DNA of 64,000 nt, taken from NCBI GenBank assembly GCA_024653775.1, contig JANLHZ010000037.1, forward strand, positions 1-64,000, in the 5' to 3' direction. The notes under the pieces were generated by a model that was not told the DNA's origin, made no database searches, and worked only from the letters and a program-made list of their open reading frames with translations. Each line of letters starts with the position of its first letter. Positions within the stretch are counted from its first letter, which is position 1. The DNA comes from Planctomycetota bacterium (lineage in GTDB: Bacteria; Planctomycetota; UBA8742; JACQVU01; JANLHZ01). Below are positions 30,401-47,640 of the stretch, one piece after another. Made by a program: the position numbers and the translations under genes.

Positions 30401-33400
30401 GGATGCGTCTGGAAACGTAATCGTCCGTGGCGCGGTAGGGGAAACGAATTGAAGGGTCGTGTCGCTGGCACCGTCTTCGAAAACGAGACTAGTGCCGAGA
30501 TACATTGTTCGGAACGCGCTTCCATTCAAGCCGAGATCGTATGCGTTGTCCGCGCCGACCGCGATGGCGCCATTCATGGTTCCCCCGGAAAGAGAGAGCA
30601 ATCCCGCGATGTCGCTCGTCAGAGAGACTGTCCCGGAGTTATCCGGAAACAAGATAGCTCTCGCCGAAGTGGATGACGCGGTGATCGTCGTGTCGCTGGC
30701 GCCGTTTTCAAAAACGAGGCTGGTTCCAACGTAGGCGGAGCGAAACGCGGAACCATTCGCGCCAAGATCGACGGAGTTGTTCGCGCTGACCCCGATCGAG
30801 CCGCTCATTACGCCGCCGGATAGTGGAAGGTAGGTTGTAAGGTCATTCGTAAGCGCGAACGTTCCCGAAGCGTCTGGCAGTGTGAAACTCCTGTCGTCCG
30901 TGAGAGTCGCTGTGGTGAACGTACCGGAGTTGCCCGCACTGCCAATTATCCAGGACGCCGAAGTCGTTCCAGTGTCCGTGTTCTGCGTGTGAAGATTGGA
31001 TGTAAGCGCCATGGTTCCGGATGCGTCTGGAAGATTGTAAACGCGCCCCGCGGTGAGAACCGTGGAATCGAGAGTCCCGCCGAAGCCGCCTGAACCAATT
31101 ACCCACGTGGCGGAAGTCGTGCCGGTATCGGTGTTCTGAGTGTGCAGGTTAGACGTGAGCGCCAGGGTTCCGGATGCGTCGGGAAGATTGTACGAACGAC
31201 TGCCCGTGAGTGTCACCGAGTCGAAAGTTCCAGAATTCCCGCCGGAATTTATTACCCAGGTGGAGGTGGAAGTCCCCGATATTGAACCTCCGGTGATGCT
31301 GACCGCGTTCGAATTCTGAGTCGCCATCGATCCGAGGCCGAGGTTCGTTCGCGCTCCAGCGGCGTTCGCTGAACCGGTTCCCCCGTTCGCGAGGGCAACG
31401 ACTCCGGTGAGCGTAATATCTGGGTTCAGCCCTCCGCTCGACGAAATCACGCCAGACCCGGTGACGGAAAGAATTGTTCCCGCGCCGACGGTAGTCCAGG
31501 CAAGGTTTCCAGCGCCGTCCGTCGACAGAATCTCGCCGGGGTCGCCGTCGCCGCTCGGAAGTACGTACAGGACGTCCGTCAGCATCGAATCGGGCGCCTT
31601 GAATGCGGTGAAATTGGTCCCCGCTGCGGAAAGCTCCAGAAATCGGATTTCCCCGGTATTTCCAGGCGCGCCTCCGTACGGCCCCACGGAGATGGCGTTC
31701 TGGGTTTGTAGCCCCGTTAATCCCGTGAGGTTGCTGTTCATTCCGGAAACGACTACTATTCCGCTCTGGTCGGGGAGAGTATACGCGCGCGCGCCTGTCA
31801 ATGAGGCGGTGTCGAACGTCCCGGAGTCGCCAACGCTGTTAATCACCCACGATGCGGCGGTTGTCCCCGTATCGGTATTTTGAGTATGGAGGTTCGAGGT
31901 AAGAGCTATAGTCCCGGAGCTGTCCGGAAGGTTGTATGTCCGGTTTCCTGTAAGCGCGGCGGAATCAAGGGTCCCGGAAAATCCGCTGGACCCAACGATC
32001 CAGGTCGGCTGGGTCGTCCCTGTATCCGTGTTCTGGGTGTGGATATTCGTCGTAAGCGCAATGGTCCCCGATGCGTCTGGCAGGTTGTACGTCCTGTTTC
32101 CCGTAAGCGCGGCGGAATCAAGGGTCCCGGAAAATCCGCTGGACCCAACGATCCAGGTCGGCTGGGTCGTCCCTGTATCCGTATTCTGGGTGTGGATATC
32201 CGTCGTAAGCGCAATGGTCCCCGATGCGTCGGGAAGATTGTACAGACGATCCGCGCCGAGAGACGCCGCGTCGAATGTTCCCGAATTTCCGTTCGAATTG
32301 ATGACGAAGTTCGAGGTGGACGTTCCGTAGACAGCGCCGCCTGTGATGCTGACGGAACTGGCGTTCTGCGTCGCGATGGAGCCTATGCCGAGGTTCGCGC
32401 GGGCGCTTCCGGACGTGCTCGCCCCGGTGCCGCCGCTCGACATTGGGACGATCCCGGAAAGGGTTATCTCCGGCGCGGCTCCGCCAGTGGAAGACAGGAC
32501 ACCGCTCGCTGTGACGCTGGTGACGGTCCCGGCGCCGGGATTTGTCCAGATCAGTCGTCCCGCGCCATCCGTCGAAAGAACCTGATTCGCGGTTCCGTCG
32601 GAGCCTGGGAGAGTGAAAACAAGGCTTGACGACACGCCGTCCGGGCTCTTCAGTCCGATGTAGTCGTTTCCGTTCGAGGCGATTTCCAGGAACCGCAATT
32701 CCCCGGTCTCGCCGTTTCCAACGCCGTAAGGACCGATAACCACCGCGTCTCGCGTCGAAAGCGCGGTAAGACCGGTAATGTCCGCATTGACGCCGATCGA
32801 TGCCGCGCCGAGGTTTATCCTCGCGTTCGATGCGGTCGACGCGCCCGTGCCTCCCGTGGCGATGGACAGCGGCGCGCCGGACCAGAGGGACTCGTCGATA
32901 GCGTTCATAGTTGCAAGCCCGCCGAGGCCAAGGTTTATCCTCGCGTTCGATGCGGTCGACGCGCCCGTGCCGCCCGTGGCGATGGACAGCGGCGCGCCGG
33001 ACCAGAGGGACTCGTCGATGGCGTTCATAGTTGCAAGCCCGCCGAGGCCGAGGTTTGTCCTTGCATCCTGCGCCGACGACGCGCCCGTGCCTCCATAGTC
33101 AACATCCACCACGCCGCTCAGGGTAATGTTCGGAGTCTGTCCGCCGCTGGAACTTAGAGGTCCGGACGCCGTCACGTCCAGAACCGCATCGTCCGAAATT
33201 CCGATGGGCGTTCCGTACACCACTTCAGACACTTCGGATTCTCCTGCGACGTTTATCGCTGTGACGATAAAAACGTAGGTTACACCGTTTACAAGTCCGG
33301 TGACGACTTCCGGACTTACCGCGTTCACTACAGCGGTTCCGTTCTCAGGCGTAACCGACGAACTCGCGCGGTAATAAAGGTTGTATGACGTGGCGTTGAA

Positions 33401-34174
33401 AACTTCCTCCCACACAAGCGTTATCGCTCCGCTGTCGCTTGCTACGATGGACAGCATCGGCGCGGCTGGCGGATCTACCGAAACCGTCGGCCTCAGACTG
33501 ACAAGCGGGGAAGGCAGCGACTCTCCGGAACCATTGAACGCAGTCAGAATGAAGTAATAGTCCACGTCGTTGGTCAGACCTGTCACCACTAGCGGATTGA
33601 CCGCGTCCGGGATGGTAGCCCCGTTCCCCGGAGCGACGTCCGGCTCCATGCTGTAATAGATATTGTATCCGACGGCATTCGAGACGAACTCCCACGCGAG
33701 AAGAACGCTTTCAGTTCCAGCGGACGACGATGAGAACGTCGGAAGCGATGGCGGCAGGACCGACGCCATCGGAGTTGCGATAGCCGTGTTCGATGGAAGA
33801 CTGTCGCCGCCGGCGGATTCAGCGACAACCCTGAACGAATACGAAGCACCATTTGTCAGACCTTGAACGACGAAAACGTTTCTGGTCGTCTTCTGGATTT
33901 TCAGGACTCCGCCTTCAACGGCGTCTCCGTATATCACCCGGTATTGGCTGGCGCCCGCAACTTCGTCCCAGTGGATGGTAACCGTTCCATCTACCGCGGC
34001 GCCCACCTCGACAACCGGCGCGTTAGGCGCGCTGGGCCTGGAAAAGCTTTCCTTGACCGAGCCTCGATTGCATCCGGGAAGCGCCACCACAAAAACAAGC
34101 AGAATCAGGACAAGACGCGCTAGCCCGTTAGCGACGGTCGAAAAGCCTGGATACGTTAATACGCAAAGACGCAT
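27437..34174 (-). CDS. giant (2245 aa) repetitive cell-surface protein: lipoprotein-type signal, three Fn3 domains, then many roughly 70-aa beta-rich repeats
   Basis: N-terminus MRLCVLTYPGFSTVANGLARLVLILLVFVVALPGC. Fn3-like segments (TVTIHWDEV..YRVIYG). Repeats such as TQNTDTGTT..W.I.S.G.SGT.D...LTG.R.YNLPDASGT.ALT and GGTGAS...AR.NLGLG. Confidence 0.75.
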   Translation of the reverse strand: MRLCVLTYPGFSTVANGLARLVLILLVFVVALPGCNRGSVKESFSRPSAPNAPVVEVGAAVDGTVTIHWDEVAGASQYRVIYGDAVEGGVLKIQKTTRNVFVVQGLTNGASYSFRVVAESAGGDSLPSNTAIATPMASVLPPSLPTFSSSSAGTESVLLAWEFVSNAVGYNIYYSMEPDVAPGNGATIPDAVNPLVVTGLTNDVDYYFILTAFNGSGESLPSPLVSLRPTVSVDPPAAPMLSIVASDSGAITLVWEEVFNATSYNLYYRASSSVTPENGTAVVNAVSPEVVTGLVNGVTYVFIVTAINVAGESEVSEVVYGTPIGISDDAVLDVTASGPLSSSGGQTPNITLSGVVDVDYGGTGASSAQDARTNLGLGGLATMNAIDESLWSGAPLSIATGGTGASTASNARINLGLGGLATMNAIDESLWSGAPLSIATGGTGASTASNARINLGAASIGVNADITGLTALSTRDAVVIGPYGVGNGETGELRFLEIASNGNDYIGLKSPDGVSSSLVFTLPGSDGTANQVLSTDGAGRLIWTNPGAGTVTSVTASGVLSSTGGAAPEITLSGIVPMSSGGTGASTSGSARANLGIGSIATQNASSVSITGGAVYGTSTSNFVINSNGNSGTFDAASLGADRLYNLPDASGTIALTTDIHTQNTDTGTTQPTWIVGSSGFSGTLDSAALTGNRTYNLPDASGTIALTTNIHTQNTDTGTTQPTWIVGSSGFSGTLDSAALTGNRTYNLPDSSGTIALTSNLHTQNTDTGTTAASWVINSVGDSGTFDTASLTGARAYTLPDQSGIVVVSGMNSNLTGLTGLQTQNAISVGPYGGAPGNTGEIRFLELSAAGTNFTAFKAPDSMLTDVLYVLPSGDGDPGEILSTDGAGNLAWTTVGAGTILSVTGSGVISSSGGLNPDITLTGVVALANGGTGSANAAGARTNLGLGSMATQNSNAVSITGGSISGTSTSTWVINSGGNSGTFDSVTLTGSRSYNLPDASGTLALTSNLHTQNTDTGTTSATWVIGSGGFGGTLDSTVLTAGRVYNLPDASGTMALTSNLHTQNTDTGTTSASWIIGSAGNSGTFTTATLTDDRSFTLPDASGTFALTNDLTTYLPLSGGVMSGSIGVSANNSVDLGANGSAFRSAYVGTSLVFENGASDTTITASSTSARAILFPDNSGTVSLTSDIAGLLSLSGGTMNGAIAVGADNAYDLGLNGSAFRTMYLGTSLVFEDGASDTTLQFVSPTAPRTITFPDASGTVALTSNIHTQNTDVGTTSSTWVINSSGFTGALDSAALTAGRVYTLPDASGTLALTTSIHTQNTDIGTSQTNWTVNSGGNSGTFDSAALTGNRTYNLPDASGTLALTTNIHVQNTDTGTTSPSWIVGSGGNSATFSTASLTGTRSYTLPDLSGVVVVSGVNTNITGITGLSTQSALSIGPYGVAAGNTGEIRFLELAAGGVNYAGFKAADSMATNVMYTLPDGDGAPGEILSTDGSGNLTWTAGGAGTVTGVTGSGVISSSGGITPDITLTGIVPIANGGTGAANAGDARTNFGLGSMATQNSGAVSITGGAISGTSTATFVINSGGNSGTFDSAILTGSRSYNLPDASGTLALLTNLHTQNTDTGTTAATWAINSGGFTGTLDSAVLTAGRVYNLPDSSGTFALTTDLHAQNTDIGTTSASWIISSAGNTGTLSAATLTGARVFSLPDATGTLVLSGVNDTITGITGLATQNAISVGPYGAAAGNTGELRFLELASNGSEYIGFKAANSIAANLVYTLPSADGIATQVLTTNGLGTLSWSTPAGGGTVLGVTASAPLASSGGTNPDISITGQVAVANGGTGAANAGDARTNLGLGSLATQNSNAVSITGGSISGTSTPMWAINSGGNSATFDTAVLTASRAYTLPDASGTLALTSGLHTQNTDTGTTSTTWILNSTGFTATLDSSFLSANQAFTLPDVTGTFVITAGNQSIAGNKTLTGTTAFAGAFTLGDDGDTGAIDTSDWNIDATGAMTGISGITTDGGYTQIGAIANVFTGTVTVNTANADAALGTTDGTFNYALNSTDGGIIRVGAVAGLPAAGAPAGSLNFNTNAGTDTGLNVSDGIKWQPMGARVLATYRSTAAEDVGSNWITIDASLNAIAASQPGLYIVDITVSESNQNSDYDIGFRLRETVGGTTLDSFSPGHYRQQESGGVACTLYYNKTNTDAETLSVQWVIIGGTNGGPTAFTLDGEVMSVTRVTVYRVNTN
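31930..32235. repeat. near-identical 153-bp tandem duplication inside the giant gene
   Basis: Two units, over 95% identical, in frame. Confidence 0.8.
32811..33100. repeat. 120-bp tandem repeat x2.4 inside the giant gene
   Basis: aggtttatcctcgcgttcgatgcggtcgacgcgcccgtgcc... repeated at 32811, 32931 and 33051. Confidence 0.8.
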
Positions 34175-34442
34175 GCATATACCTCACTTACCTGTAACGC
34201 ACATTGATAAAGATGCCAAGAAATGCGTACTCCACAATTAGTAAACTAGTGGGGAGAAGTTGATCTATGCTTTGTTTATAGATTTTTGTTTATAGATTAT
34301 TGTCAACCAACCATTGCATTGTTGTAAATTGTATCACAATCGTGTCGAGGGGTGTGAAATCGGATAAAAATTCTTGGCGCGCGGGCATCTGTGTTAAATC
34401 CTATGCGCATCGATTTTCCGCGCCTCTTATGGTTCCCAAATT

Positions 34443-34472
34443 AAAAAGCGCCGCATAGAGGAAACGCGGCGC
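34443..34472 (-). terminator. rho-independent terminator after the cytochrome operon
   Basis: On the minus strand gcgccgc-N11-gcggcgc followed by TTTTT. Lies 40 nt past the stop of the 8-heme gene. Confidence 0.6.
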
Positions 34473-34509
34473 CGGGATAGAAGCAAAACTCTCAGCGAAG
34501 GAGAGTATT

Positions 34510-35559
34510 CTATTCGCCTGCGGGAAGCGCGAGCGCGCGCTCCATGTGCTCTGGTCCGGAGAGGTGCGGGTTATGGCACCTCGAGCAGTTGCGCTCGATC
34601 GGCGTGCGGTCGATCTTGCGCTTCCACGCGCCCGGATCGCGGGCGTTCCCGAGGATGACGCGGTTCATCAGCGTGACGTGTTCCGAAGCCGCGCCGTGGC
34701 ACTCGCTGCACCAGATTCCGCGCTGATGGGGAGTCTGCTCGGCGTTCTGGAAGCCGCCCCGGTCTGGCGAGTCGAATCCGGTGGTGTGGCACCGCAGACA
34801 CTTTGGATCGTGGGTGTAGTCGGCCTTCCCTCCAGTAGCGGCGGACGCGGTAACGAGTCTATCGAACGACGTAGCGTGTCTCGAAGCGCCCCAGTCGTTC
34901 ACGCGGTCCTCGTGGCACTTCTTGCATTCGTCCATGGGGACGAACCTCGCCTCCGAAGAAGCCCGCTGCGCGTCCCGCGGAATCGAAGCGTCCGTCCCCG
35001 CGGCCCAGCCGCGGTAGTGGAACTGATCCTGCGGATCGATCCAGGCGAGAGTCTCTTCCGGGGTCTTCAGATGCGGATTATGACAATCGAAGCACGCGCG
35101 GGTCGGATGCTTTTCTATCTGGCGGTTGTGTTCTCCCGGATCGATCGCTCCCTGAACGCGCCTTTGCACCGGAAGCATCAGATCGATGTGAGCGGAACCC
35201 CGGCCGTGGCATTCGCAGCAGCCGACGTCGACGAGGCTTGGAGTCTCTTCGAGACTGCGGAAACCTCCTGTCTGTTTGTATCCTGTCGAGTGACATGCGA
35301 GGCACGCGGGATCGAGTTCCTTGCCCTGGTTCTCGAAATGGCTCGTGAGAGTCTCGTACGCCTGGGCGTGGTCCGACGCGCGCCATGTGCGGTACTCGTC
35401 CACATGGCAGCGTGTACAGAAGTTGCTCGGGACGAACCTCGCGCTTCGAGGAATGTCGCCGTCGCCGGTGGCGCGCCTCGCTTCGAGAGTGATAAACACG
35501 AGGCACATCGTAAGCAGAGCGACAGGAAAGCCCAGGGACACGGTTCTGATCACTTTCAT
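34510..35559 (-). CDS. octaheme c-type cytochrome (8 CxxCH), secreted
   Basis: Signal peptide MKVIRTVSLGFPVALLTMCLVFITLEA. Heme motifs CTRCH, CLACH, CCECH, CFDCH, CKKCH, CLRCH, CSECH and CSRCH. GGGAGAG ribosome-binding site. Confidence 0.85.
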   Translation of the reverse strand: MKVIRTVSLGFPVALLTMCLVFITLEARRATGDGDIPRSARFVPSNFCTRCHVDEYRTWRASDHAQAYETLTSHFENQGKELDPACLACHSTGYKQTGGFRSLEETPSLVDVGCCECHGRGSAHIDLMLPVQRRVQGAIDPGEHNRQIEKHPTRACFDCHNPHLKTPEETLAWIDPQDQFHYRGWAAGTDASIPRDAQRASSEARFVPMDECKKCHEDRVNDWGASRHATSFDRLVTASAATGGKADYTHDPKCLRCHTTGFDSPDRGGFQNAEQTPHQRGIWCSECHGAASEHVTLMNRVILGNARDPGAWKRKIDRTPIERNCSRCHNPHLSGPEHMERALALPAGE

Positions 35560-35597
35560 TTTACTCTCCCAGCATTGCGATTGGCGTTAGCTCCCTG

Positions 35598-36860
35598 TCA
35601 ATCCTCCTGATGGCACATCGACAGGCAATCCACGTCAGCTTCTTTTTCCTCGTGACACTCTATACATTCCTTCCGATCCCTCTGCTCGAAGGTAGTGGGC
35701 GGATCGGTTGATGCGACCATCCCCTCGTGGCAGTCGAGGCATTTTATACCGGACTTCACGATGTGGATTCGGTGGCTTGGATACGCGTGCATATAGACCG
35801 AACCGGGTCTGATCCACGGAATCCGGCGTCCGTCGATCAGATACGGTTTCAGGGCGTCCTCGCGATCGCTTTCCTCGTTCAGCCTCGTCTCGGGATCGTG
35901 GCATACATCGCAGAGCTTTACGCCCGGAACTCCCGCTTCCTTGTATACGAGCGTATCCGAGTGGCAGCTTACGCAGGGGCGCAGCTCCGGATTCTGGACG
36001 ATGTAAGGCGCGTCCGCGAGTTCGTGACAGTTTGCGCAGCCCTCGATCTTCGGATTGATCTTGAGCGCGACGTCCCAGGAGCCGTGGCAATCCTGGCAGC
36101 CCTTCTCCTCGAGTCCCTGCCTTACGAACGCCGGCCTCTGCTGCGCGTTCGGCATCGTCTGTCTTCCCTCGTGGCAGGAGCCGCACATGGCCCTCCGCGA
36201 TATGACGGACTCGGGAAGCGAAGCCTCGTTATGATGACAGTCGTCGCAATTGGCATTGAGAGCCGACGAGATAGCCTCCCGCGGGGTTTTCGCGAGAGCG
36301 GGTTTCGACGGATCCTCCGAATACGTGTTCATGGGACCGTGGCATTTGCCGCAGTAGTCGAGCCTCGGAGTTCCCATCAGCTCGGTGCTGAACTCGACGT
36401 GGCACTCGAGACATGTTTTCGAAGTGACGTTGCTCTCGCTCTCTCCGAAGCCCTTGTGCATCTGGATATAGCGCTCCTGGTGGGCGCTTTCGAACCCGGT
36501 CGCGTGGACGTGCAGTCCGACCGCGGTTTCCTTGTGACGGTTCTCTTCGAACACTTTCAGGTGTCTTTCGATCCCGGCTTCGCGGTGTTCGCCGCCGCCG
36601 AAGTGCTCGAGGTAGTCCTTTCCGCCGAAGTAGGTGTAGTGGGACTGGTGGTTGAACTGAATCGGCTGCAACGGAAGCTGCTCGATCTTGTGACCGTTCG
36701 GTCCGACACGGACGCCGTCTCCGCCTTCTTCCCCGTTGCCCGAGGTTTCGGTGCAGTTCTGGAGGCAAAGCGCTGTAAGAATCAGGACGCTCGCGAAAAC
36801 GATCGCTTCCCGTTTGAATGATTTTAGCTTTTCCATAGACGAAGTCCCTTTGATTTCCAC
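35598..36860 (-). CDS. multiheme c-type cytochrome (about 10-11 heme motifs), secreted
   Basis: Signal peptide, 10 CxxCH (CLECH, CGKCH, CDDCH, CGSCH, CQDCH, CANCH, CVSCH, CDVCH, CLDCH, CIECH) plus one CxxxCH. Confidence 0.85.
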   Translation of the reverse strand: MEIKGTSSMEKLKSFKREAIVFASVLILTALCLQNCTETSGNGEEGGDGVRVGPNGHKIEQLPLQPIQFNHQSHYTYFGGKDYLEHFGGGEHREAGIERHLKVFEENRHKETAVGLHVHATGFESAHQERYIQMHKGFGESESNVTSKTCLECHVEFSTELMGTPRLDYCGKCHGPMNTYSEDPSKPALAKTPREAISSALNANCDDCHHNEASLPESVISRRAMCGSCHEGRQTMPNAQQRPAFVRQGLEEKGCQDCHGSWDVALKINPKIEGCANCHELADAPYIVQNPELRPCVSCHSDTLVYKEAGVPGVKLCDVCHDPETRLNEESDREDALKPYLIDGRRIPWIRPGSVYMHAYPSHRIHIVKSGIKCLDCHEGMVASTDPPTTFEQRDRKECIECHEEKEADVDCLSMCHQED

Positions 36861-36935
36861 TCGGCGATATATGTCTTCCTGGAACCCCTCACTTTTTGTT
36901 TCGCGGGTCGCGAAGAGAATTCCCCGGACCCGTGC

Positions 36936-36961
36936 TCCTCTCCCCGTTTGGGGAGAGGAGG
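36936..36961. other. intercistronic hairpin (ctcctctcccc-gttt-ggggagaggag)
   Basis: 11-bp perfect stem between the giant multiheme gene and the next cytochrome gene, with no T-run. Confidence 0.4.
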
Positions 36962-36976
36962 GAGCTGAATCTATTA

Positions 36977-39900
36977 CTATCTGATGTCCGCACCCGGTGG
37001 GTACGAACCTGTAATCGCTCTATACGATTCCTGCATAAGCTGGATAATATAGCCGAAGTTGTGGGTTCCGTGGGAACCGTCTTCCTCGACCGCGATCCAG
37101 TTCCAGAGCGCCCCGGCGAGGTTGTCCCCGGCCATGTTGATGGTGATTCCGGAGACCGGGGATCCGCTGCTTGTCAGGTAACCTGCTCTTTCGAGCGCAA
37201 GGCCGAGCACTTCGTGCAGTCCCTCGAACTCGTCGCGGTGCCCCTCGACGTGCCCGTCGCCGTCGTAATCGCCCTTCGAGGGTCGATCGATCGTCTCCAG
37301 ATTGACGTGGCAGCCCTGGCAGGCGTTCGCCACGTTGGAAAGCTCCCGACCGTCTTCGTCAGTCGTGGTGATTTTGAACGTGTGTTCGCCCATAATGAGG
37401 CTTCCGGTTTCCACCGTGGAAGGATCGGGCGCCATGTGGCAGGTGATGCACGTGTTTTCGACTTTGGAGTGAGCGCCTACGTGCTCCCAGGCTTTGGTGT
37501 TTACGCTGTTCACCATCAGGTGGGAGAAGTTCTCGTAGCCGTTGGTGCCAAAGAGCATATCGCCCGATATGCCGTAGTGCGGTCCCCAGTGGCTCGAAGT
37601 GGCATCACCCCGAGTCTGCCAGGTTCCGCGAGCCTGGTGGCATCCAAGGCAGAGGTTGCCGTGACCTCCATCCTCTGAAACGACTCCCGTCGCGAAGGTG
37701 ATTGGTTCCTGCCTTCTGATCTGATGCTCGTTGGTGGCATCGTGCGGATCGTGGCAGGTCACGCAGCCTATCTCGAGTCCGGATGTCTGAGGCATGATCT
37801 CCAGCGTCACGTCGGAATCGTTGGTCTTATACGTCACGGTGACGCTTCCGTAGGTCCAGCCCGAGCTGTTCTGCTCGGTGAGGTCGAGGGATGTCGCCGT
37901 AGTGGTGTAGGCGTAGGAGCCGCTTGCCACCACGTCTCCCGACGCGAAGCTGGAACCCTTCGCGATAGTGACGTCCACGTTGCCAGTGCCCGTGTTGTAG
38001 GCGAGCTTGGCGTATAGACGTCCGCGTCCGAGGTAGGTGTTCGTGAAGTTCATACCGTTGAACGTCCAGGCATTGAACTGGTTCGATCCGTCGTTCTCCT
38101 CGACGAGAAGCACGGTCTGTTTCAGGATCGACACGGTTATGCTGGTTCCGGTCGTAGTCGGAATGGCTGCCGCGACGTTCAGAGTCATGAAGTTCGCGGA
38201 AGTCCCATAAGTGCTGCTCGCGGTAGTTTCGACCGCGGGAGTGACGAGCGTGAGCGTACTGCTTACCGCTGGAGTCGCGATCGTTCCCGTGGTGGCGAGA
38301 AGCTGGTACGCCCGCTTTTGCGAGTTGTTGTATGCGTCCATCTGGAAGTTACCGGCGCCGTCGTCGGTGTATGTGATATACACACTGGTGGGCGCGGACT
38401 TGCTGGAGTTCTTGAACAGATAGACCCAGGTGTCGAACGTGTTCGTGGTTTCGCCATCGGTGATTGAAACGATTCTTGTGGAATCGTCGTTGCCCTCGGT
38501 CTGTCCGTTGATGAGGATGAAACCCTGTGCGCTGTGGCACTTGGTGCATCCGTCGTTTCCACCTCTGCTTTCGATCGCGGTGCTGTGCTTGTGGCCCGCC
38601 TGCTGGAGCATGAACGCCCTTGGATGCGCGTTCGGCTCGTCGTGGCAGACTCCGCACTGATCGTCGTCGAAACTGACGGAAGTGTTGAACGTGGCGGTCT
38701 GCGCGACGCTGCCGGTCCCGTCGGTGTGCTCCGAACCTGGACCGTGACAGTTCTCGCACTGGATGTTCGCGCGCTGGGACAAAGCGTTGTGAGGTCCGGC
38801 GTCGTCGATCAGCGCGTCCCACTGGGCCTCTGATCCACCTGTGGTGAAGGTCCACCCGGACTGCTCCTTCAGGTCGGTCCAGCCGCCGTTGTCGATTGCC
38901 GGGTCCGCCTGCCAGCCGACGGTATGGCACTTGAGGCAGGATTCGCTATACTTACTCGAAAGAGTGCCGTTAATGCCTCGTTCGGCGTGCTCCGCATGCC
39001 CGGTTTCCTGCCAATCCGCGACCCTCGAGTCGTGACACCCGGAGGTGCCACAGCTCTTTCCGGAAGGAGTGTCGCCTCCGATGGTTCCAACGGTGACGTA
39101 GGTTCCCGCGGTTAAGTTGTATGTTCCCGACTCCTTGAGCGTCGTCATCGTTACGTTGCTAAAGCCGTTATAACTGATGGTGTACACTCCGGGCACGTCA
39201 GGCGTGAAGTAGCACCAGCGCTGGGCGCCTGTCGCGTCCCAGCTAAGCGTTGCGACGCTCCCGGCGGGTTGCGCGGAAAGCGAGTACGTCCAGGCGACGA
39301 GCGCGGTTCCCGTCTGCGATTCGAGAGCTCCCATGAAGTACATCGGAACTCCGATGGACACGCAGCTCTGAGCGGACTGCAGGAAGCTGTATTCCGACGT
39401 GCCTACGGTGTAGCTCTCGATCCACGAAGTTACGCTGTCGGTGGCGCGGTTGTACCACACGGTGTCGTTTCCTGCGGTATAACTGACGGTGCTGTCGTCG
39501 GTGACGTGAAGGTCGAGAGTCATTTTGCGCTCGACGGGCGTGAACCCCATTGGCGCCCACCGATCGGGCATGAACTCGTTTCCATTGCTCGCGAGGTCGT
39601 TAGTTACCGTCGGGAACGGATTCGTGAAGGTCGGATTAGCCGTGTCCCCACCTGTGAGCGACACAATGTGGCCGTGTCTGTCCTCGAAGGACCAGTCGTA
39701 AGACGCGGTTCCGGTTACGTTCGCGGGAGTAGCGACGATTGTCGTGATCTGCGAACCCCATCCCTGATTTTTCAGATCGGGGCCTGCGCTTACGCTGAGG
39801 CTGCTAGCGGTCGGCGCGGCGAACGCGCTCGTCGCGACGACTTCGACCGTCGTAGTCTTGCGAACTCCGGCTCCACCGGCGTCGCCGACCGTCAGTTCGA

Positions 39901-41662
39901 TCACGTAAGTTCCGGCCTTGGTCGGGAAGAACCAGGGCTTGCTTGCGTCCTTTCCAATAATCTGACTCGCGCTCGTGTCGGGACCGCTGACGATCCTCCA
40001 GTTGTAACCGAGGCTGTCGATGGCTTCTCCGTCCGTGCCATATCCGTTACCGTCGAAGCTCTTGGAGCCGTCGAGCTGGATCGCGCCGAGGACGTCAGGC
40101 GCGGCGGCGCGCGCCGCGGGAACCGGGCTGAGGTTGCCCCACATTGTGAGTAGCTTGGTGTTAAGTTCCGCGATGGCATCGTCCGAGTGGCACCCGCCCG
40201 ACTGACACGAGTTCGGCATTCCCTTGACTCCGCCGTGGGAGTCGTCGCTTTCGGTCGGATATATGATGCGGAACTCGTGGTTCCTGATGTCGTACGCCTC
40301 CGCGGACTTCGCCATGTATGGCATGTGACAGTCGATGCAACCCGTCGGGGTATCGTCTCTAATTGGGTGTTTAGTGTGCTTCGTTATGTCGCTTGCCGTG
40401 AGGTTGTACGTTCCCTCGTGGCAGGAGAGGCACAGTTCCGTCGGCTCCATCTTGATGTCCGCTGTGAACGTGGACCCGTGGGGAGCGTGACAGGAATAGC
40501 ACGTAAGTCCCGCTTCGACGTGTTTCGATTCATCCATGTCGATCCACTGCTGCTGGTGACCTTTGGATGAGAACGTCGCATTCTGCCAGATGTTCGCGGT
40601 ATTGCTGTTCGGAATAAACTCGCGATAATCCTCGAGCACGTCCCCCGGCTTATAGAAATCGCCTTCCGCGTTACGGGAATACTCGGCGTGAAAATCGTTC
40701 ACGACGCCGTCGGCGGAGGTCATCGGGTATTTGCCTTCGCCTCTTCCGTGGCAGGTGGAGCAGACCTCGTTGCCTCTGTCCTCTGCCATGAGCGCGGGAT
40801 TGTTTATAGTGCCTCTGCCTCCTCCAAGAGAAACGTGTTTGGAACCTGGGCCGTGGCAGGCTTCGCAGCCGATGTTGGCTTCGGTGTAGTTCGCGACGAT
40901 GTGGTTTTTCCGTCCGTCGGAGCCGACGTTTATCTCGTCGATGTACGCCTCGGTGACGCCTGTGGCGTGACAACCAACGCAGTAAGCCTCCCAGGACTTA
41001 TTGAGCGGAGGCAGATCCGTTGTGGTATATCCGCCTCCCTCCACGGCGGTGTAATATCTGTTCGCGTTGTAAGTGGTCCACCGATTCGTGTTCACGTTGT
41101 ACTGAAGCGGAAGGACGTAGTTGACCACGTTGTTTCCGACAGTGACGGGGGTCGTATAACGCTGTTTCCACCTGCCGCTGCCTCCGATGATGCTTTCTAC
41201 GGTCCATACCTTGGTTCCCATCGTGACGGTGTATCTTCCCGTCGTTTGGTTGTACCCGAGAATGGGAGCGATTTCCCCGTAGGCGCTCCAGTCGGAATCG
41301 TTGTATGCGTCGGTCGCGCTCGATCCGAGCTGGATTCCCTGCTTGAAGTCGTTCACGCCGTCGTCATCGCTGTCGCAGAGGATGTTTTCGTCCTCCATCG
41401 AAAGGAATTTCTTGGTGTGATTGGTCGACTTCCAGCTCTGGTAGAGAGCGGCGTGACAGTCGGCGCATTTTTCAGAGCCGACGTAAGCCGCGTTAAGCTG
41501 CGAATGAACCGCGGTTGCGCGGGACGAATTCGCCAGAATCCGGTCGTCGTTCGTACACTGCGTAATCGAGACTCCGAGCGCGACAGCGCATAGAAGTATG
41601 AATAGCCATCTCCCCATTAAAGCGATCGTCTCCGATCCAGTCTTTTCCGATAAACCTTTCAT
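36977..41662 (-). CDS. giant multiheme c-type cytochrome (about 1560 aa, about 15-17 heme motifs) with a large heme-poor central beta-domain region
   Basis: Start at MKGLSEK, with GGAGG 5 nt upstream. Signal peptide LMGRWLFILLCAVALGVSITQC. Heme motifs CADCH, CVGCH, CEACH, CSTCH, CYSCH, CLSCH, CIDCH, CLKCH, CENCH, CGVCH, CTKCH, CVTCH, CLGCH, CITCH and CQGCH, plus two CX4CH. Confidence 0.85.
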   Translation of the reverse strand: MKGLSEKTGSETIALMGRWLFILLCAVALGVSITQCTNDDRILANSSRATAVHSQLNAAYVGSEKCADCHAALYQSWKSTNHTKKFLSMEDENILCDSDDDGVNDFKQGIQLGSSATDAYNDSDWSAYGEIAPILGYNQTTGRYTVTMGTKVWTVESIIGGSGRWKQRYTTPVTVGNNVVNYVLPLQYNVNTNRWTTYNANRYYTAVEGGGYTTTDLPPLNKSWEAYCVGCHATGVTEAYIDEINVGSDGRKNHIVANYTEANIGCEACHGPGSKHVSLGGGRGTINNPALMAEDRGNEVCSTCHGRGEGKYPMTSADGVVNDFHAEYSRNAEGDFYKPGDVLEDYREFIPNSNTANIWQNATFSSKGHQQQWIDMDESKHVEAGLTCYSCHAPHGSTFTADIKMEPTELCLSCHEGTYNLTASDITKHTKHPIRDDTPTGCIDCHMPYMAKSAEAYDIRNHEFRIIYPTESDDSHGGVKGMPNSCQSGGCHSDDAIAELNTKLLTMWGNLSPVPAARAAAPDVLGAIQLDGSKSFDGNGYGTDGEAIDSLGYNWRIVSGPDTSASQIIGKDASKPWFFPTKAGTYVIELTVGDAGGAGVRKTTTVEVVATSAFAAPTASSLSVSAGPDLKNQGWGSQITTIVATPANVTGTASYDWSFEDRHGHIVSLTGGDTANPTFTNPFPTVTNDLASNGNEFMPDRWAPMGFTPVERKMTLDLHVTDDSTVSYTAGNDTVWYNRATDSVTSWIESYTVGTSEYSFLQSAQSCVSIGVPMYFMGALESQTGTALVAWTYSLSAQPAGSVATLSWDATGAQRWCYFTPDVPGVYTISYNGFSNVTMTTLKESGTYNLTAGTYVTVGTIGGDTPSGKSCGTSGCHDSRVADWQETGHAEHAERGINGTLSSKYSESCLKCHTVGWQADPAIDNGGWTDLKEQSGWTFTTGGSEAQWDALIDDAGPHNALSQRANIQCENCHGPGSEHTDGTGSVAQTATFNTSVSFDDDQCGVCHDEPNAHPRAFMLQQAGHKHSTAIESRGGNDGCTKCHSAQGFILINGQTEGNDDSTRIVSITDGETTNTFDTWVYLFKNSSKSAPTSVYITYTDDGAGNFQMDAYNNSQKRAYQLLATTGTIATPAVSSTLTLVTPAVETTASSTYGTSANFMTLNVAAAIPTTTGTSITVSILKQTVLLVEENDGSNQFNAWTFNGMNFTNTYLGRGRLYAKLAYNTGTGNVDVTIAKGSSFASGDVVASGSYAYTTTATSLDLTEQNSSGWTYGSVTVTYKTNDSDVTLEIMPQTSGLEIGCVTCHDPHDATNEHQIRRQEPITFATGVVSEDGGHGNLCLGCHQARGTWQTRGDATSSHWGPHYGISGDMLFGTNGYENFSHLMVNSVNTKAWEHVGAHSKVENTCITCHMAPDPSTVETGSLIMGEHTFKITTTDEDGRELSNVANACQGCHVNLETIDRPSKGDYDGDGHVEGHRDEFEGLHEVLGLALERAGYLTSSGSPVSGITINMAGDNLAGALWNWIAVEEDGSHGTHNFGYIIQLMQESYRAITGSYPPGADIR

Positions 41663-41739
41663 ATGTTCCTCCGTTTCTGGCTTATGAATCTCTATCTGGT
41701 TTCTATTTTTCATAATCGGCTTTCCGTTGGTTTCCATAT

Positions 41740-42924
41740 TTACCTCGATCTCGAATGGCAGTTTAGACAATCGGACCCGTTATCGTAGTGTTCGAATCTT
41801 ACACTCACTCCGTGGCAGCTTCGGCAGTCGTTGCCGGGGGAGTGCTGCGTGTTCAGCGGTCTCGCGGGTGCGCTAGTGTGTCCCGCCTCGGTCCTGTGGC
41901 AGGCGAAGCACTCCGTCGAATCTATCGATTCCTCGTGGCAACTCACACAGTGGCGACTCCTTCCCGAAGCCCAGCTCGATGAGTTGTGCGACCTCGGCTC
42001 CGTGAACTGATGGCACCTGAGGCATTCGTCCTGCCTGTGGCAGTTCTCGCAGCGACTCGTGTCGAACATCGCGTCGCGCCCGTGGACCTCTCTCCGCCAG
42101 ACGCTCGTGTGGTCCCGCGGGGCTTCATTCCTGTGGCAATCCCGACATTCGCGCTCCCCCCTGTGGCAGGTGTCGCAGCTCTGGAAGGACGTCGTTCCCG
42201 TCCCGCCGTGGGTGTTCGTCCAGTTTGCGCTGTGGTTCGCGGGCTTGGTCGACTGATGGCATTCCTCGCAGGTGACGACGCCCGGAGTTTCGGGTTCGTC
42301 CCCTGAGTGGCAGAATCTGCACGTTGCCTCCTCTTCCGCAGAAGACGGTCCGTGATTATTCGGGAATTCGCCTCCGTGGTAAGCGGGCTTCTTCTCGCTA
42401 TGGCAGTCGGTACACCACTTGGTATCTTCCTCTTCGTGGCAGAGGTTGCATCTGTGCTCTTCGAAGTGCTCCTCATCCCTAAACCAGCTATGAACGCCCT
42501 TCTCGGTCCAGTTCTCGTCGTGATTCTTCGGCTTCGACTCATCCGTTATCACGCTATGGCAGAGCGTGCATTCGTCCTTCAGGTTCTCGTGTTCCGGCGC
42601 GTTCTTCTCGTGGCAACCTTCGCAGGATTCCATCGTCATCATGTATCCCGGATACTTGGCGTTCTCGACCTTGAGGTCCGGGTCGTGGCACTCGTTGCAC
42701 TTGACCTCGAGACCTTTGTGCAGATCGTGATCGAACTTTATGTCGGAAGTTTCGACGACGCTCGCATTTTCGAACGCGAGCGAAAGCAGATCCTCTTCCC
42801 CGATCCCGAGGAACGAAATGCCGAGACAGGACGCGAAACTCGCGGCTATGAACGCGATCTGAATCAGCCTCGTCCTTCCGAACCATCGCGGATGCTGCCC
42901 GACTTTGTTTTCGACGTGTTCCAT
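41740..42924 (-). CDS. multiheme c-type cytochrome (about 15 CxxCH), secreted
   Basis: Signal peptide. 15 CxxCH motifs in 394 aa. AGGAAG ribosome-binding site. Confidence 0.85.
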   Translation of the reverse strand: MEHVENKVGQHPRWFGRTRLIQIAFIAASFASCLGISFLGIGEEDLLSLAFENASVVETSDIKFDHDLHKGLEVKCNECHDPDLKVENAKYPGYMMTMESCEGCHEKNAPEHENLKDECTLCHSVITDESKPKNHDENWTEKGVHSWFRDEEHFEEHRCNLCHEEEDTKWCTDCHSEKKPAYHGGEFPNNHGPSSAEEEATCRFCHSGDEPETPGVVTCEECHQSTKPANHSANWTNTHGGTGTTSFQSCDTCHRGERECRDCHRNEAPRDHTSVWRREVHGRDAMFDTSRCENCHRQDECLRCHQFTEPRSHNSSSWASGRSRHCVSCHEESIDSTECFACHRTEAGHTSAPARPLNTQHSPGNDCRSCHGVSVRFEHYDNGSDCLNCHSRSR

Positions 42925-42933
42925 GCTGGCTTC

Positions 42934-44598
42934 CTAAAATTCGTACTGAACCTGCAGCCTGACTTCGTGATACGAACCGTTGCCTCCGGTTTCATACGTA
43001 TATCTCGCTTCGAGATCGAATCCCTCGAATGAGCCGAAGAGATCGTGAATCTCGATATTCGAATATATCGACCAGTGATCCTCGCGCTCTGATTCGAGGA
43101 AAGTGACGGAGCTGATCGACGTCTGGACTTCCGTCCACATCGAATAGTCCGCGCCGATGTAGCCCTCGATGTAGTCCTCCTCGTAGCCGACTTCGCCCTC
43201 GACGATTCCGCGTTCCTGGTTGAGCGGATTCGAGGAGGTTTGCGATCCCGTGGTCTTGCCTCGCCAGTACTCGCCCCGGATGAGTACGTGCGAGCCGGGG
43301 GCCACGAGATCGTCCACGTTGAGAAGACCATAATATTTCCACCATTCGCGATTGAACGCGGATTCGGCGCCGTCGTCGTGGAGTTGCCTCGTCGAGGTTC
43401 CGACCTCGAAGAACAGCACTTCCGTAGCGTACCAGCCGACGTTCGCGCTGACCATCGTGTTCGGTTCGAGCTTCGCAAGGACCTCGCTGAAAGGCGCGAA
43501 CGCGCTGTCCGCGCCTTCCTGCGCGGTAAGGAGAGTAGTCACGCGCAGACTGTAATCGAGGTCGATCGCGTTCACCTCCCCGCTGATTCTCGCGCGGATG
43601 TACTCGGAGTTCTCGCCGCGATAGCTGTAGCCGCCGAAAACGCGCAGCTCGTCGAAAATCTTGTACAGATATTCCGCGCTGAAGCGATTGTCCGTGTCGT
43701 CTATCTTAGTCCCTCCGGCAAAAGGCTGCGGGTCGCCCTCACGGACGTGAACGAAACTCGTAAGTCCCTTCCCGAAGTTCCCCGTCTTGAAACGCACGTC
43801 TCCGCCGATCATGTAGTCGCCACTGCGATCCGAATCGAAGAACCTCACGGGGACGCCGCCGAACGCTTCGAATTCGAGCGCGCGCATCAGCCGGATGCCG
43901 AGAAGTCCTCCGTCGAAGGTGTACTGCCTGTCGAGCGAATGCGCGACTCGACCCGCTTCGAGATAGAAGCCGTCCTTGGGACCCTGCTGAAGTCCGATGC
44001 TCGCCTCGTAAAGTCGTCCCTGGAGGTCGCCATTATACGAGTCGAACACGCCTCGAAACTCGTTCGACGTCGACACCGAGCGATCCTGATTCCCGAAGAG
44101 GTCCGCGTACGCGTCCGCCGCGAAATCGAAATACAAATGTCCGTCAAGCAGGTCCCGTCCTCCGAGACCCAGTGAGAATACCATGTCCTGGTCCGTCTCC
44201 CTCGACCTCGTGCGGGATCTCCAGCGGAGTCGAAGATCGCCGAAGATTTCCGGAGTCAGGAAAACGTCGGGAGCAACCTCTTCTTCCGTATCGAGAGCTT
44301 CATCCGTCTCTTCCACCGAATCCCCGGCGGATTCCTCGGTGCCGTCCGGCTCCGCACTCTCATCCGGCTGAGCCTCTTCCTCGGCTTCGGAAATTTGATC
44401 CTCCTCCTCTGGGACCTCCCCGGCGTCCACCATATCTGCCGATTCATTCGTCGCGGAATCCTCTGCAGGTTCTTCCGCGTCGACACTCCGGGGACAAAGG
44501 AGGAGGATCAGGACTAGTCCCGTCGCAACCGCCAGAATGAACCTCGTGCGGATTCCGCCCGGTCCACTCCTTTCAAAGTTTTCATTTTTAACATCCAT
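42934..44598 (-). CDS. putative outer-membrane beta-barrel (porin-like) protein with a roughly 70-aa poly-acidic N-terminal region
   Basis: Start at MDVKNENFERSGPGGIRTRFILAVATGLVLILLLCPRSVDA, a signal peptide. C-terminus ...RLQVQYEF with an OMP-type terminal Phe. Alternating amphipathic strands. The extension to 45240 in the ORF track was rejected. Confidence 0.6.
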   Translation of the reverse strand: MDVKNENFERSGPGGIRTRFILAVATGLVLILLLCPRSVDAEEPAEDSATNESADMVDAGEVPEEEDQISEAEEEAQPDESAEPDGTEESAGDSVEETDEALDTEEEVAPDVFLTPEIFGDLRLRWRSRTRSRETDQDMVFSLGLGGRDLLDGHLYFDFAADAYADLFGNQDRSVSTSNEFRGVFDSYNGDLQGRLYEASIGLQQGPKDGFYLEAGRVAHSLDRQYTFDGGLLGIRLMRALEFEAFGGVPVRFFDSDRSGDYMIGGDVRFKTGNFGKGLTSFVHVREGDPQPFAGGTKIDDTDNRFSAEYLYKIFDELRVFGGYSYRGENSEYIRARISGEVNAIDLDYSLRVTTLLTAQEGADSAFAPFSEVLAKLEPNTMVSANVGWYATEVLFFEVGTSTRQLHDDGAESAFNREWWKYYGLLNVDDLVAPGSHVLIRGEYWRGKTTGSQTSSNPLNQERGIVEGEVGYEEDYIEGYIGADYSMWTEVQTSISSVTFLESEREDHWSIYSNIEIHDLFGSFEGFDLEARYTYETGGNGSYHEVRLQVQYEF

Positions 44599-44633
44599 AC
44601 AGCACGCTGCCCTTGCTGTTAACGAACCTGCTC

Positions 44634-45797
44634 CTAAATGCTCCCAGGTCTCACCTCCGGATCCGTCAGGAGCCATTTTCGAAGGATTGCGAGAAGCACC
44701 ACCGGAGCAAGTACCACCATAACTCCGGCGACGAGTCCTTCCCGTCCTCCAATTTCGAGATTCCATTCCTGCACTCCGAGGTAGGTCTTCGAAAGCAGTT
44801 GACCGCCGATTACGACGTTCCAGCGCATGCTGAAGACCTGAAGAATCAGAAGGAATGAGCTGAAGTAAGCGAGCATCGATCTTGTGCGCTCGCTGACGTT
44901 CACGAATAGAATGTATGAGAGAAGAAGCAGCGGTATCACGCCGCCAACGACCACCTGCGCGCCCCAGTAGCTCATCGCGAGGTTGCCCTCGAGCATCTCC
45001 CGGATAATCGACCAGTAGTCGGTCTCGTAATACGCGAGGTGAAGAAGTTCGAGTAGTTCGAGCGTGATCGCGAACAGCAGGAACCCCCAGAGATACCGCA
45101 CGAGACCCCGGACGCAGTCGCTCGAAACCGCGGTCTTGGTCAGCTTCGCGTGGACGTGATAGAGGATTATCGTGAACGCGAGCCCGCACACCATCGCGCT
45201 CAGGATGAACACGACAGGAGTCAGCGCGCTCGACCACCACATGTTCGTCTTCACCGCCGCGAAGACGAATCCCACGTAACCAGTCAGAATGCAGGCAAAC
45301 GGAATTCCGATCACCGCGAGAGCCTTGATCACCTTCTGATCGTGCTCGTAGCTTGCCTTCGAAATCTTCGTCACGCCCAGGCAGATCAGTTTGTAGAAAA
45401 CGCCCTTCAGCCCTCCGCTAGACGCTTTCGCGACGAAGTTCGGACGGAACGCGTACCAGATCATGACGATCACAAGCACGAGGAATCCCATGTATATGTA
45501 CCCGAAGCCGGACATCGCGCTCGTAAGATGAGGCGTTATGAAAATGTACGCCGCGCGGGTGGGCTGCTCGAGGTGAAGCATAAGCGGTAGCGTCGCGAAG
45601 CAAAGGAACGAAACCGACGCCACAAGCGCGGGTTTGAATATCGGCTCGAGGTACGCGATCCCGAACGCCTTCGAAAGCGCACCGGTTATGAACGTCCCCG
45701 CGACCATGCCCGATATGAAAGGATACAGCACGATCATCAACGACCAGACGACCGTCTCGTTCGGATAGAAGTAGTATGTCTGCAGGATCGTCTCCAT
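44634..45797 (-). CDS. NrfD/PsrC-family polytopic membrane subunit (quinone-interacting)
   Basis: 387 aa with about 10 TM helices and a typical NrfD-like topology. Confidence 0.8.
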   Translation of the reverse strand: METILQTYYFYPNETVVWSLMIVLYPFISGMVAGTFITGALSKAFGIAYLEPIFKPALVASVSFLCFATLPLMLHLEQPTRAAYIFITPHLTSAMSGFGYIYMGFLVLVIVMIWYAFRPNFVAKASSGGLKGVFYKLICLGVTKISKASYEHDQKVIKALAVIGIPFACILTGYVGFVFAAVKTNMWWSSALTPVVFILSAMVCGLAFTIILYHVHAKLTKTAVSSDCVRGLVRYLWGFLLFAITLELLELLHLAYYETDYWSIIREMLEGNLAMSYWGAQVVVGGVIPLLLLSYILFVNVSERTRSMLAYFSSFLLILQVFSMRWNVVIGGQLLSKTYLGVQEWNLEIGGREGLVAGVMVVLAPVVLLAILRKWLLTDPEVRPGSI

Positions 45798-45801
45798 AAT
45801 C

Positions 45802-47174: not shown

Positions 47175-47640
47175 TTTTCACCGCCTATTCTGTGCGGACC
47201 ATCCGGGGAACGGATTCCGGAATTGAACAAGTCAGCGCCGGGTCCGAGCCTGATCGATGATCCGCCTTTTTCATTCGGCGAATGTCGAAGGAAGAAATTG
47301 TTTGTGTACGAAGTATTTCTTCGACACTAAAAACTCACACCACCTTAAACCAAACTGTTTTCCACCGGTCTGCCCCTGGGCTACCGCGACCGTATTGTTG
47401 TTAGAACAGGGATCGTCGGCGCTCTGGGTACAAGCTACCTGCATAAATATCTATCCTCTTAAAGCAAGGCATGGGATCAAAAAAATTATTTTTTTTTGAA
47501 ATAACTCACTTGCACCTTTGAATCAGAACACCTTGAACAGAAAAAGTGGAAACCGTGGACGTCATAAATTGAGTTCGAGCTTGTATCCCGCTCCGGCCGC
47601 GAGAATATTCAAAGAGTAATCACTAAACAGGGGGATTTCA

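Follow-up and report, generated by a model that had tools for sequence, protein, structure and literature searches.

A minus-strand gene at positions 36977..41662 of the 64,000-nucleotide (nt) window analyzed here (contig JANLHZ010000037.1, positions 1 to 64,000, of an uncultured Planctomycete) encodes a cytochrome of 1561 amino acids (aa) with 17 heme motifs. This open reading frame (ORF) is one genuine gene, in which two modules of the NrfA/MccA/OcwA superfamily, an octaheme module followed by a nonaheme module, are joined by beta-sandwich-type domains. Sequence architecture, homologies, and synteny are shown directly by the data, and the fusion is supported by a single contig. The protein is probably a surface-tethered terminal oxidoreductase of a porin-cytochrome conduit, which would be fed by a quinol-oxidizing NrfD module; location and activity are predicted from the sequence. 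This assignment is preferred because OcwA is the closest characterized relative, because many relatives of the nonaheme module carry sorting domains of the type IX secretion system (T9SS), and because the gene cassette is conserved. Cytochromes of this kind are known, and the particular features here are the octaheme-nonaheme fusion, a unique insertion beside heme 5, and a 15-heme periplasmic partner.

Coding sequence and heme motifs

The frame is open without interruption across 36977..41770, about 4.7 kb on the minus strand, with the stop codon at 36977-36979. The ATG at 41662 was preferred as the start because a GGAGG is located 5 nt 5' of it and because the resulting 1561-aa product is identical, including the start, to NCBI entry MCR4315183.1 ("hypothetical protein NUW37_02410 [Planctomycetes bacterium]"). 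A first-pass annotation of the window had chosen the same start with its perfect GGAGG, had estimated about 1560 aa, and had expected an overlap of about 30 nt with the upstream 15-CxxCH cytochrome gene for a start at 41770, all of which agrees with the present data. This TTG at 41770 was rejected, since it leads to an overlap of 31 nt with the upstream gene, which ends at 41740, and adds a non-signal N terminus.

The N-terminal hydrophobic signal (residues 1-36; 41555..41662, minus strand) ends in the lipobox-like sequence ...SITQ-C36-TNDD. The closest relatives possess a canonical LG(T/G)GC lipobox (LGTGC-NND or LGGC) at the same position, with NND next, as in the target protein. Judged from this signal, the cytochrome is likely a lipoprotein.

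Fifteen of the 17 heme motifs are of the CxxCH type and two are Cx4CH variants, C486QSGGCH and C871GTSGCH, which confirms the first count of about 17 motifs including two CX4CH sites. Residue shuffles (n = 5000) contained 0.06 heme motifs on average and never more than 3, and 34 of the 39 Cys residues of the protein reside in such motifs. They are arranged in three blocks of eight (positions 66, 228, 266, 301, 388, 411, 442, and 486), five (871, 909, 969, 1003, and 1039), and four motifs (1300, 1338, 1405, and 1448), separated by heme-free stretches of 379 aa (residues 492-870) and 257 aa (residues 1043-1299), with a further gap of 162 aa between hemes 1 and 2. The initial description, about nine N-terminal and about eight C-terminal motifs with one or two in residues 560-1150, has to be replaced by this 8 + 5 + 4 layout; likewise, the single heme-poor beta core of 600 aa dissolves into the two separate heme-free stretches, because five motifs fall inside it.

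The Cx4CH sites line up with a canonical CxxCH in 31 of 35 (C486) and 66 of 70 (C871) relatives. They are therefore credible heme sites with a widened loop, and it is plausible that both bind heme. Pfam multiheme families were found above cut-off, and the CxxCH or variant motifs together with the Sec signal identify the protein as a c-type multiheme cytochrome with a predicted heme occupancy.

Nonaheme module

The nonaheme module consists of two parts. Module B (residues 871-1045; 38528..39052, minus strand) contains hemes 9-13, which are hemes 1-5 of the nonaheme module; the Cx4CH at 871 opens it, and CTKCH at 1039 is module heme 5. Module C (residues 1298-1561; 36980..37771, minus strand) contains hemes 14-17, or module hemes 6-9, followed by three C-terminal helices plus a DYDGDG motif. 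The helices were modeled by AlphaFold2 (AF2) at residues 1475-1492, 1514-1528, and 1536-1551 with predicted local distance difference test (pLDDT) values of 84-96, and the last one aligns with a helix of OcwA. When a set of 165 relatives was searched segment-wise with phmmer, module B was matched in 129 and module C in 131 of them. All Cys and His residues of the nine heme motifs are invariant across 70 relatives (alignment A1), and 704 relatives of the nonaheme module were obtained at E ≤ 1e-5 among 8000 candidates scored. Many of these relatives carry T9SS sorting domains and are therefore exported to the surface.

A family profile of residues 871-1561 retrieved from the PDB OcwA of Thermincola potens (6i5b; E = 4e-32), OmhA (6qvm; 4e-17), and MtrA (6r2q chain A; 9e-11), followed by octaheme nitrite reductases, MccA, and NrfA. 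The nine heme motifs are collinear with those of OcwA (PMC6703420); the alignment comprises four collinear stretches over hemes 1 and 3-9, heme 2 being weak, and module C corresponds to OcwA residues 247-498. Both proteins share the CxKCHSA-aromatic motif of heme 5, a DGS-x-G-x-HN helix motif, and the helical C-terminal end. OcwA is an experimentally characterized cell-surface terminal reductase (PMC6703420). Whole half-models compared with the PDB by Foldseek matched for the C-terminal half only through the Ig/PKD domain, and heme cores with little secondary structure match poorly in such a comparison.

There are also clear differences. OcwA is a 526-aa single module of a Gram-positive bacterium, whereas the nonaheme module of the target is located behind an octaheme module in a putative lipoprotein of a diderm-type organism. 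The beta-sheet subdomain of OcwA (residues 75-156) is absent from the nonaheme module, whose hemes 1 and 2 are spaced by only 38 residues; instead, an Ig-like domain is positioned ahead of the module and an insertion of about 250 aa follows heme 5. In OcwA, hemes 2 and 5 each have an open distal face below a His-His pair, and the two solvent-exposed, five-coordinate hemes, of which heme 5 is one, occupy the two ends of the chain (PMC6703420). These pairs read A1012-H1013 and H1362-Y1363 in the target, while His-His is present at the first site in 41 and at the second in 36 of the 70 relatives. This suggests that the pockets at both chain-end hemes of the nonaheme module are altered. On the DNA, the pair sites are located at about 38624-38629 (residues 1012-1013) and 37574-37579 (residues 1362-1363), and a family-conserved Glu-Trp near the OcwA-type His-His sites is Met-Leu in the target.

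Octaheme module and following beta-sandwich domains

Module A (residues 57-500; 40163..41494, minus strand) contains seven CxxCH motifs and the Cx4CH at 486, and was modeled by AF2 with pLDDT values mostly of 80-97. Hemes 1 and 2 are separated by a beta-sheet subdomain with strands at residues 134-214, at the position equivalent to that in OcwA; a C-terminal helix bundle is absent. In a phmmer comparison with OcwA 6i5b (2.6e-13), module A was collinear over heme 1, hemes 2-4, and hemes 6-9 without a counterpart of heme 5. The best Foldseek match was the octaheme sulfite reductase MccA of Wolinella succinogenes (4rkn; E = 2e-5, about 500 aligned columns), albeit with a low template modeling (TM) score of 0.25-0.28 and a root mean square deviation of >11 Å. 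MccA-type octahemes correspond to OcwA minus heme 5 (PMC6703420), and module A, which misses this heme and has MccA as best fold match, fits the published relation.

Module A and MccA (4rkm/4rkn) have in common eight hemes, the missing OcwA heme-5 position, the beta-sheet subdomain after heme 1, and a last heme in a non-standard, longer motif. This last motif is Cx4CH in module A and CX15CH in MccA. Furthermore, module A, in which C96 is the only non-heme Cys, offers no second pair of free Cys for a Cu site and lacks the C-terminal helix bundle, and no MccA-type operon partners were seen. These properties and the weak fold match do not place the protein among the MccA-type sulfite reductases. 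Module A, alone or with tetratricopeptide repeats (TPR), occurs at ≥472 loci in GTDB species genomes, that is, at least 472, from many phyla including archaea; examples (L005, L007, L019, L055, and others) come from metagenome-assembled genomes (MAGs) of Methanosarcinales and Hydrothermarchaeota and from Brocadiaceae. Aerobic Proteobacteria possess it as a fusion with TPR repeats, as in an 840-aa protein of Halomonas.

Three domains of the beta-sandwich type or possibly so follow module A. The PKD domain (residues 528-610; 39833..40081, minus strand; Pfam PF22352) was modeled with a pLDDT of about 90 and yielded Foldseek PKD matches with TM scores to the matched database entries of 0.6-0.73. 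The Ig-like domain (residues 766-868; 39059..39367, minus strand) in front of the nonaheme module was also well modeled, gave Foldseek PKD/Ig matches, and shows homology to the domain at the N terminus of nonaheme-family proteins (P0132, P0119, P0060, and P0017), relatives in which it likewise precedes the nonaheme module. The first-pass proposal of Ig/Fn3-type sandwich domains is borne out by these two domains. Between them, the poorly resolved linker domain (residues 620-765; 39368..39805, minus strand) matched no Pfam family and was modeled with a pLDDT of <40; its sole similarity was a weak one of a W-x-PMG-x-x-P loop to the N terminus of an OcwA-like gene product of contig L001 (E = 0.038). 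It is possibly a degenerate PKD-like domain.

Insertion after heme 5 of the nonaheme module

An insertion (residues 1046-1297; 37772..38527, minus strand) immediately follows CTKCHSAQGF, the motif of module heme 5, and extends the spacing between the heme-5 and heme-6 blocks to 252 aa, compared to 10-45 aa in 123 homologous modules. Residues 1046-1297 were matched in none of the 165 relatives. A phmmer search over 1.84 billion representative proteins returned only 17 others at E ≤ 1e-3, in which the second half alone was matched. None of these 17 proteins is a cytochrome or contains a CxxCH motif. Among the carriers are MopE-related/FGE-sulfatase proteins, the variable region of a flagellin, a Big_5 protein, and small proteins that lack signal peptides. 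The domain constitutes a small unannotated family with 33 copies in the 17 proteins (P0167-P0183), often in tandem, and with the motif L-S/T-E-Q-N-S-S-G...G-S-V-T-V-T-Y.

An independent profile was built from the 33 copies with the query excluded. It scored the second half of the insertion (residues 1188-1287) at 91 bits and the first half (residues 1070-1139) at 10-16 bits, a score reached by none of 2000 shuffles, while Thr/Ser-rich domains elsewhere in the protein gave about 0 bits. The two halves compared by BLASTP with each other gave no significant match (E = 0.10), and neither Pfam (E up to 10) nor PHROGs contained a usable match to the insertion. The insertion is most likely a tandem pair of copies (about 1070-1139 and 1188-1287) of this unannotated domain of about 100 aa.

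The graft directly follows heme 5, which is an open chain-end heme in OcwA, and the tandem domains may for this reason be viewed as a dedicated binding or docking device at the electron exit site, a tentative and rather doubtful suggestion. If it were true, recognition of a substrate, mineral, or partner would be coupled to a single defined heme among the 17 of the wire, and a concrete case of module grafting that confers a new specificity in extracellular respiration of Planctomycetota would have been found. To our knowledge, no mineral-respiring member of the Planctomycetota has been characterized.

Relatives and origin of the fusion

The third-codon-position GC content (GC3) is between 0.66 and 0.81 in every 100-codon block, the junction and the insertion included. 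The domain borders are clean, and the module junction contains no remnant stop codon, intergenic spacer, or second signal peptide. DNA repeats of >18 nt in the region 34000-47500 are confined to heme-motif codons. An assembly error that joins two genes, named in the first-pass annotation as the finding that would overturn it, left no sign in GC3, domain borders, or repeats of this one contig.

Seventeen relatives of module A of the Planctomycetota type have the architecture A-PKD-A-PKD (about 1150-1190 aa; e.g., MHC4547637.1) and are 32-39% identical to the target, with E values down to 1e-184 (residues about 20-620). They share the position of the lipoprotein signal and the upstream genes for a barrel-like protein and a cytochrome of about 390 aa. 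The octaheme-plus-PKD unit is doubled in these proteins, which therefore differ from the target by carrying 16 hemes, and a nonaheme protein is encoded separately downstream (L001) or not nearby. The 306-kb Planctomycetota contig L001 contains a barrel-like gene, a gene for a 382-aa cytochrome, one for a 1165-aa A-PKD-A-PKD cytochrome, and a separate one for an 851-aa OcwA-like protein, which possesses the Ig-like domain and no insertion. The target looks like the first half of an A-PKD-A-PKD cytochrome joined to such an OcwA-like gene, and the separate, adjacent module genes of L001 make an evolutionary route to this fusion visible.

Other combinations of the modules were A-A, B-C-B-C, 13-heme proteins of A plus a C-like part, and 17- to 18-heme proteins opening with module A, and the octaheme-plus-nonaheme fusion was not seen in any retrieved relative. 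These varied combinations match the "grafting and pruning" view of the evolution of multiheme cytochromes (10.1101/2022.02.24.481543). PKD, Big, FlgD-Ig, or T9SS sorting domains are present in most of the >700 relatives of the C-terminal module and in the Planctomycetota relatives of module A. Fusions of heme modules with beta-sandwich-type domains, initially regarded as rare, are hence common among the relatives of both modules. Literature searches for multiheme cytochromes with PKD domains yielded nothing relevant.

The A-PKD-A-PKD relatives (e.g., P0004, P0005, and P0012, from L001 and L002) are labeled "ammonia-forming cytochrome c nitrite reductase subunit c552" by NCBI. Because these proteins contain 16 CxxCH-type motifs and PKD domains and are encoded in a porin-cytochrome-like neighborhood, this label is probably wrong, apparently an over-annotation caused by a weak match to PF02335.

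Operon and neighboring genes

The gene is the sixth of eight closely spaced genes on the minus strand. The first three encode a membrane-anchored tetraheme cytochrome (46518-47174) with weak NapC/NirT matches, a 4Fe-4S protein (45802-46521; Pfam PF13247) with a twin-arginine translocation signal, and an NrfD-like membrane subunit (44634-45797; Pfam PF03916). NCBIfam similarities of these quinol-module genes to NrfC, TtrB, DsrO, and NrfD were all below cut-off.

The fourth gene (42934..44598, minus strand) encodes a putative outer-membrane beta-barrel of 554 aa, in which a signal peptide is followed by a very acidic, Glu/Asp/Pro-rich linker of about 70 residues, a barrel-like part, and the C terminus ...YEF. 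A longer ORF of 768 aa at 42934..45240 was rejected, since it overlaps the NrfD-like gene, whereas the ATG at 44598 provides a signal peptide and 554 aa. Over the aligned length, the protein is 20-25% identical to the products (494-504 aa) of syntenic genes in three Planctomycetota relatives, L001, L002, and L003 (BLASTP E = 5e-20 for the L001 homologue), and a C-terminal Phe is present in all four proteins. A crude count gave 22 amphipathic 9-mers compared to 13.2 ± 2.4 in shuffles (z about 3.7). A word-indexed homologue search returned only the protein itself, and a profile of the four sequences found nothing in the PDB. The signal peptide, the amphipathic segments, and the C-terminal Phe suggest an outer-membrane barrel of about 20 strands.

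The fifth gene (41740..42924, minus strand) encodes a 394-aa cytochrome with 15 CxxCH motifs, a candidate periplasmic or trans-barrel wire. It is 30% identical (E = 5e-51) to the syntenic 382-aa protein of L001, and the relatives in L001-L003 are similar in size. Known periplasmic partners of porin-cytochrome systems contain 8-10 hemes, compared to 15 in this protein.

Downstream of the target gene follow genes for a 420-aa cytochrome (35598-36860, minus strand) with 10 CxxCH motifs, one longer motif, and a lipobox-like LQNC, and for a 349-aa cytochrome (34510-35559, minus strand) with eight CxxCH motifs and a cytochrome c554-like N terminus. The intergenic gaps are short, and the sole strong terminator-like hairpin on the operon strand is located after this last cytochrome gene (34447..34473, minus strand; a 10-bp stem with 7 GC and a T-rich tail). 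It is probably the 3' end of the operon. The genes flanking the operon are housekeeping genes.

The order of barrel, cytochrome of about 390 aa, and giant cytochrome is kept in L001, L002, and L003, and in L002, an NrfD/FeS/cytochrome set is also located nearby. This order fits that of a conduit, with the barrel itself being predicted.

Proposed function and comparison with known systems

In the proposed scheme, menaquinol would be oxidized at the inner membrane by the NrfD/FeS/tetraheme module, and the electrons would be transferred to the 15-heme cytochrome, held in or near the 554-aa outer-membrane barrel, and from there to the cell surface, where the 17-heme lipoprotein and two smaller cytochromes would receive them. 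The surface cytochromes might use Fe(III) or Mn(IV) oxides, humics, a partner, or other insoluble or macromolecular compounds as acceptors, and a reverse flow may also occur. The beta-sandwich domains and the insertion could serve as spacers or as binding or docking elements beside the exit heme. Heme occupancy, lipidation, surface location, the path and direction of the electrons, and the role of the insertion are predictions of this scheme.

The operon resembles the porin-cytochrome conduits MtrCAB of Shewanella, OmbB-OmaB-OmcB of Geobacter, and the OcwA-like porin-multiheme cytochrome clusters in the order of putative barrel, predicted periplasmic multiheme cytochrome, and predicted surface lipoprotein cytochrome, in the adjoining, putatively quinol-oxidizing inner-membrane module, and in the distant relation to MtrA. 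Unlike in these systems, the putative barrel has no detectable relation to MtrB and the periplasmic partner exceeds the usual number of hemes. The surface partner is also outside the staggered-cross family of MtrC and OmcA: a partial PF22113 match of 84 residues was the only similarity to the MtrC/OmcA/UndA group, TIGR03507 did not match, and the PDB searches returned no MtrC, OmcA, or UndA chain. Nor is it an NrfA, because a CxxCK motif is absent, PF02335 was not among the Pfam matches, and NCBIfam searches yielded no NrfA model, with NrfB-type and other models far below cut-off. The literature describes porin-cytochrome clusters with OcwA-like and further large modular cytochromes for Verrucomicrobiota and Acidobacteriota, and MAGs of Planctomycetota contain annotated porin-cytochrome complexes.

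Evaluation of this surface-reductase assignment needs to consider several observations that weigh against it. The three intervening domains of about 380 aa could separate the heme modules beyond the distance of direct electron transfer. No NCBIfam family reaches cut-off for the 1561-aa protein. The lipobox is non-canonical with an unusual Gln at −1, and the surface location is a prediction. The OcwA-type His-His pairs of hemes 2 and 5 are both changed. The 554-aa protein has no match in Pfam, NCBIfam, or the PDB and no detectable homology to MtrB or a solved porin, so that its classification as a barrel depends on the crude amphipathicity count and the C-terminal Phe. The pLDDT values of 25-35 for the insertion and of <40 for the linker give no reliable model of these regions. 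Finally, one contig is the only known source of the exact protein, and a scan of JGI metagenome contigs for the insertion-bearing region yielded no further copy.

A periplasmic catalytic multiheme reductase or electron store, which would act on a soluble substrate such as nitrite, hydroxylamine, sulfite, or tetrathionate in the manner of NrfA, ONR, MccA, or OTR while the barrel would be unrelated to export, is suggested by the superfamily of both modules, the NrfCD-like module encoded upstream, the nitrite reductase name given by NCBI to relatives, and the slow reduction of nitrite and hydroxylamine by OcwA (PMC6703420). It is nevertheless unlikely. The protein contains neither CxxCK nor the MccA-type CX15CH, the Pfam Cytochrom_C552 and the NrfA/Nrf NCBIfam models were absent or far below cut-off, and the His-His pairs near the open hemes were not kept. 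A Cu site of the MccA type requires a pair of Cys ligands, which appears unavailable with C96 as the only free Cys of module A. The conserved cassette of barrel, cytochrome, and giant cytochrome and the T9SS-sorted relatives point to export instead. The conduit could also run inward for uptake of electrons from Fe(II), a cathode, or a syntrophic partner at the surface. The sequence is compatible with either direction, quinones can be reduced or oxidized by NrfD-type modules, and porin-cytochrome systems are bidirectional in principle, for which MtoAB/PioAB, homologues of MtrAB, are reportedly an example. On the other hand, no genes for Cyc2, MtoA/PioA-type proteins, or oxygen or nitrate reductases were present in the operon or the other ORFs scanned, and the closest characterized relatives, OcwA and OmhA, are terminal reductases, which makes electron uptake quite unlikely.

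An artefactual origin, in which an assembly chimera or a sequencing error joined an A-PKD gene to its OcwA-like neighbor or generated the insertion, would explain why the modules are separate, adjacent genes in L001, why the fused protein occurs on one contig only, and why the junction at residues 620-765 and the insertion have no close homologues. The open frame of 4.7 kb, with uniform GC3 in both suspect regions, a junction between recognizable domains free of remnants, and the restriction of the repeats to heme-motif codons render it very unlikely, and a genuine domain, with 33 copies in other proteins, makes up the second half of the insertion. Of the nanowire, S-layer, or mineral-contact roles proposed in the first-pass annotation, the operon context makes contact with a substrate outside the cell plausible. 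A polymerizing nanowire subunit or an S-layer cytochrome is extremely unlikely: size, heme number, and beta-sandwich domains superficially resemble what is generally known of S-layer cytochromes of anaerobic methanotrophic archaea, but searches of Pfam, NCBIfam, and the PDB by sequence or fold detected nothing similar to OmcS, OmcE, OmcZ, or S-layer domains, the relatives with solved structures are OcwA, OmhA, MtrA, MccA, and the NrfA type, and a lipoprotein signal favors a membrane tether.

If the 17-heme protein is indeed the surface oxidoreductase of a conduit, this uncultured Planctomycete has in the operon a candidate system for extracellular electron transfer that can be tested, and the unique insertion beside the putative exit heme is a defined target for studies on how such wires recognize their acceptors. 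The protein is also a clear natural example of the evolution of multiheme cytochromes by fusion and grafting of modules. Current ideas are not overturned, as large modular surface cytochromes in porin-cytochrome clusters are known from several phyla.

Gene downstream of the operon

Just downstream of the operon, an ORF of 2245 aa (27437-34174, minus strand) encodes a lipoprotein-like product with an LPGC lipobox and fibronectin type III domains. It is separated from the operon by the terminator-like hairpin and 335 nt with two promoter-like sites.

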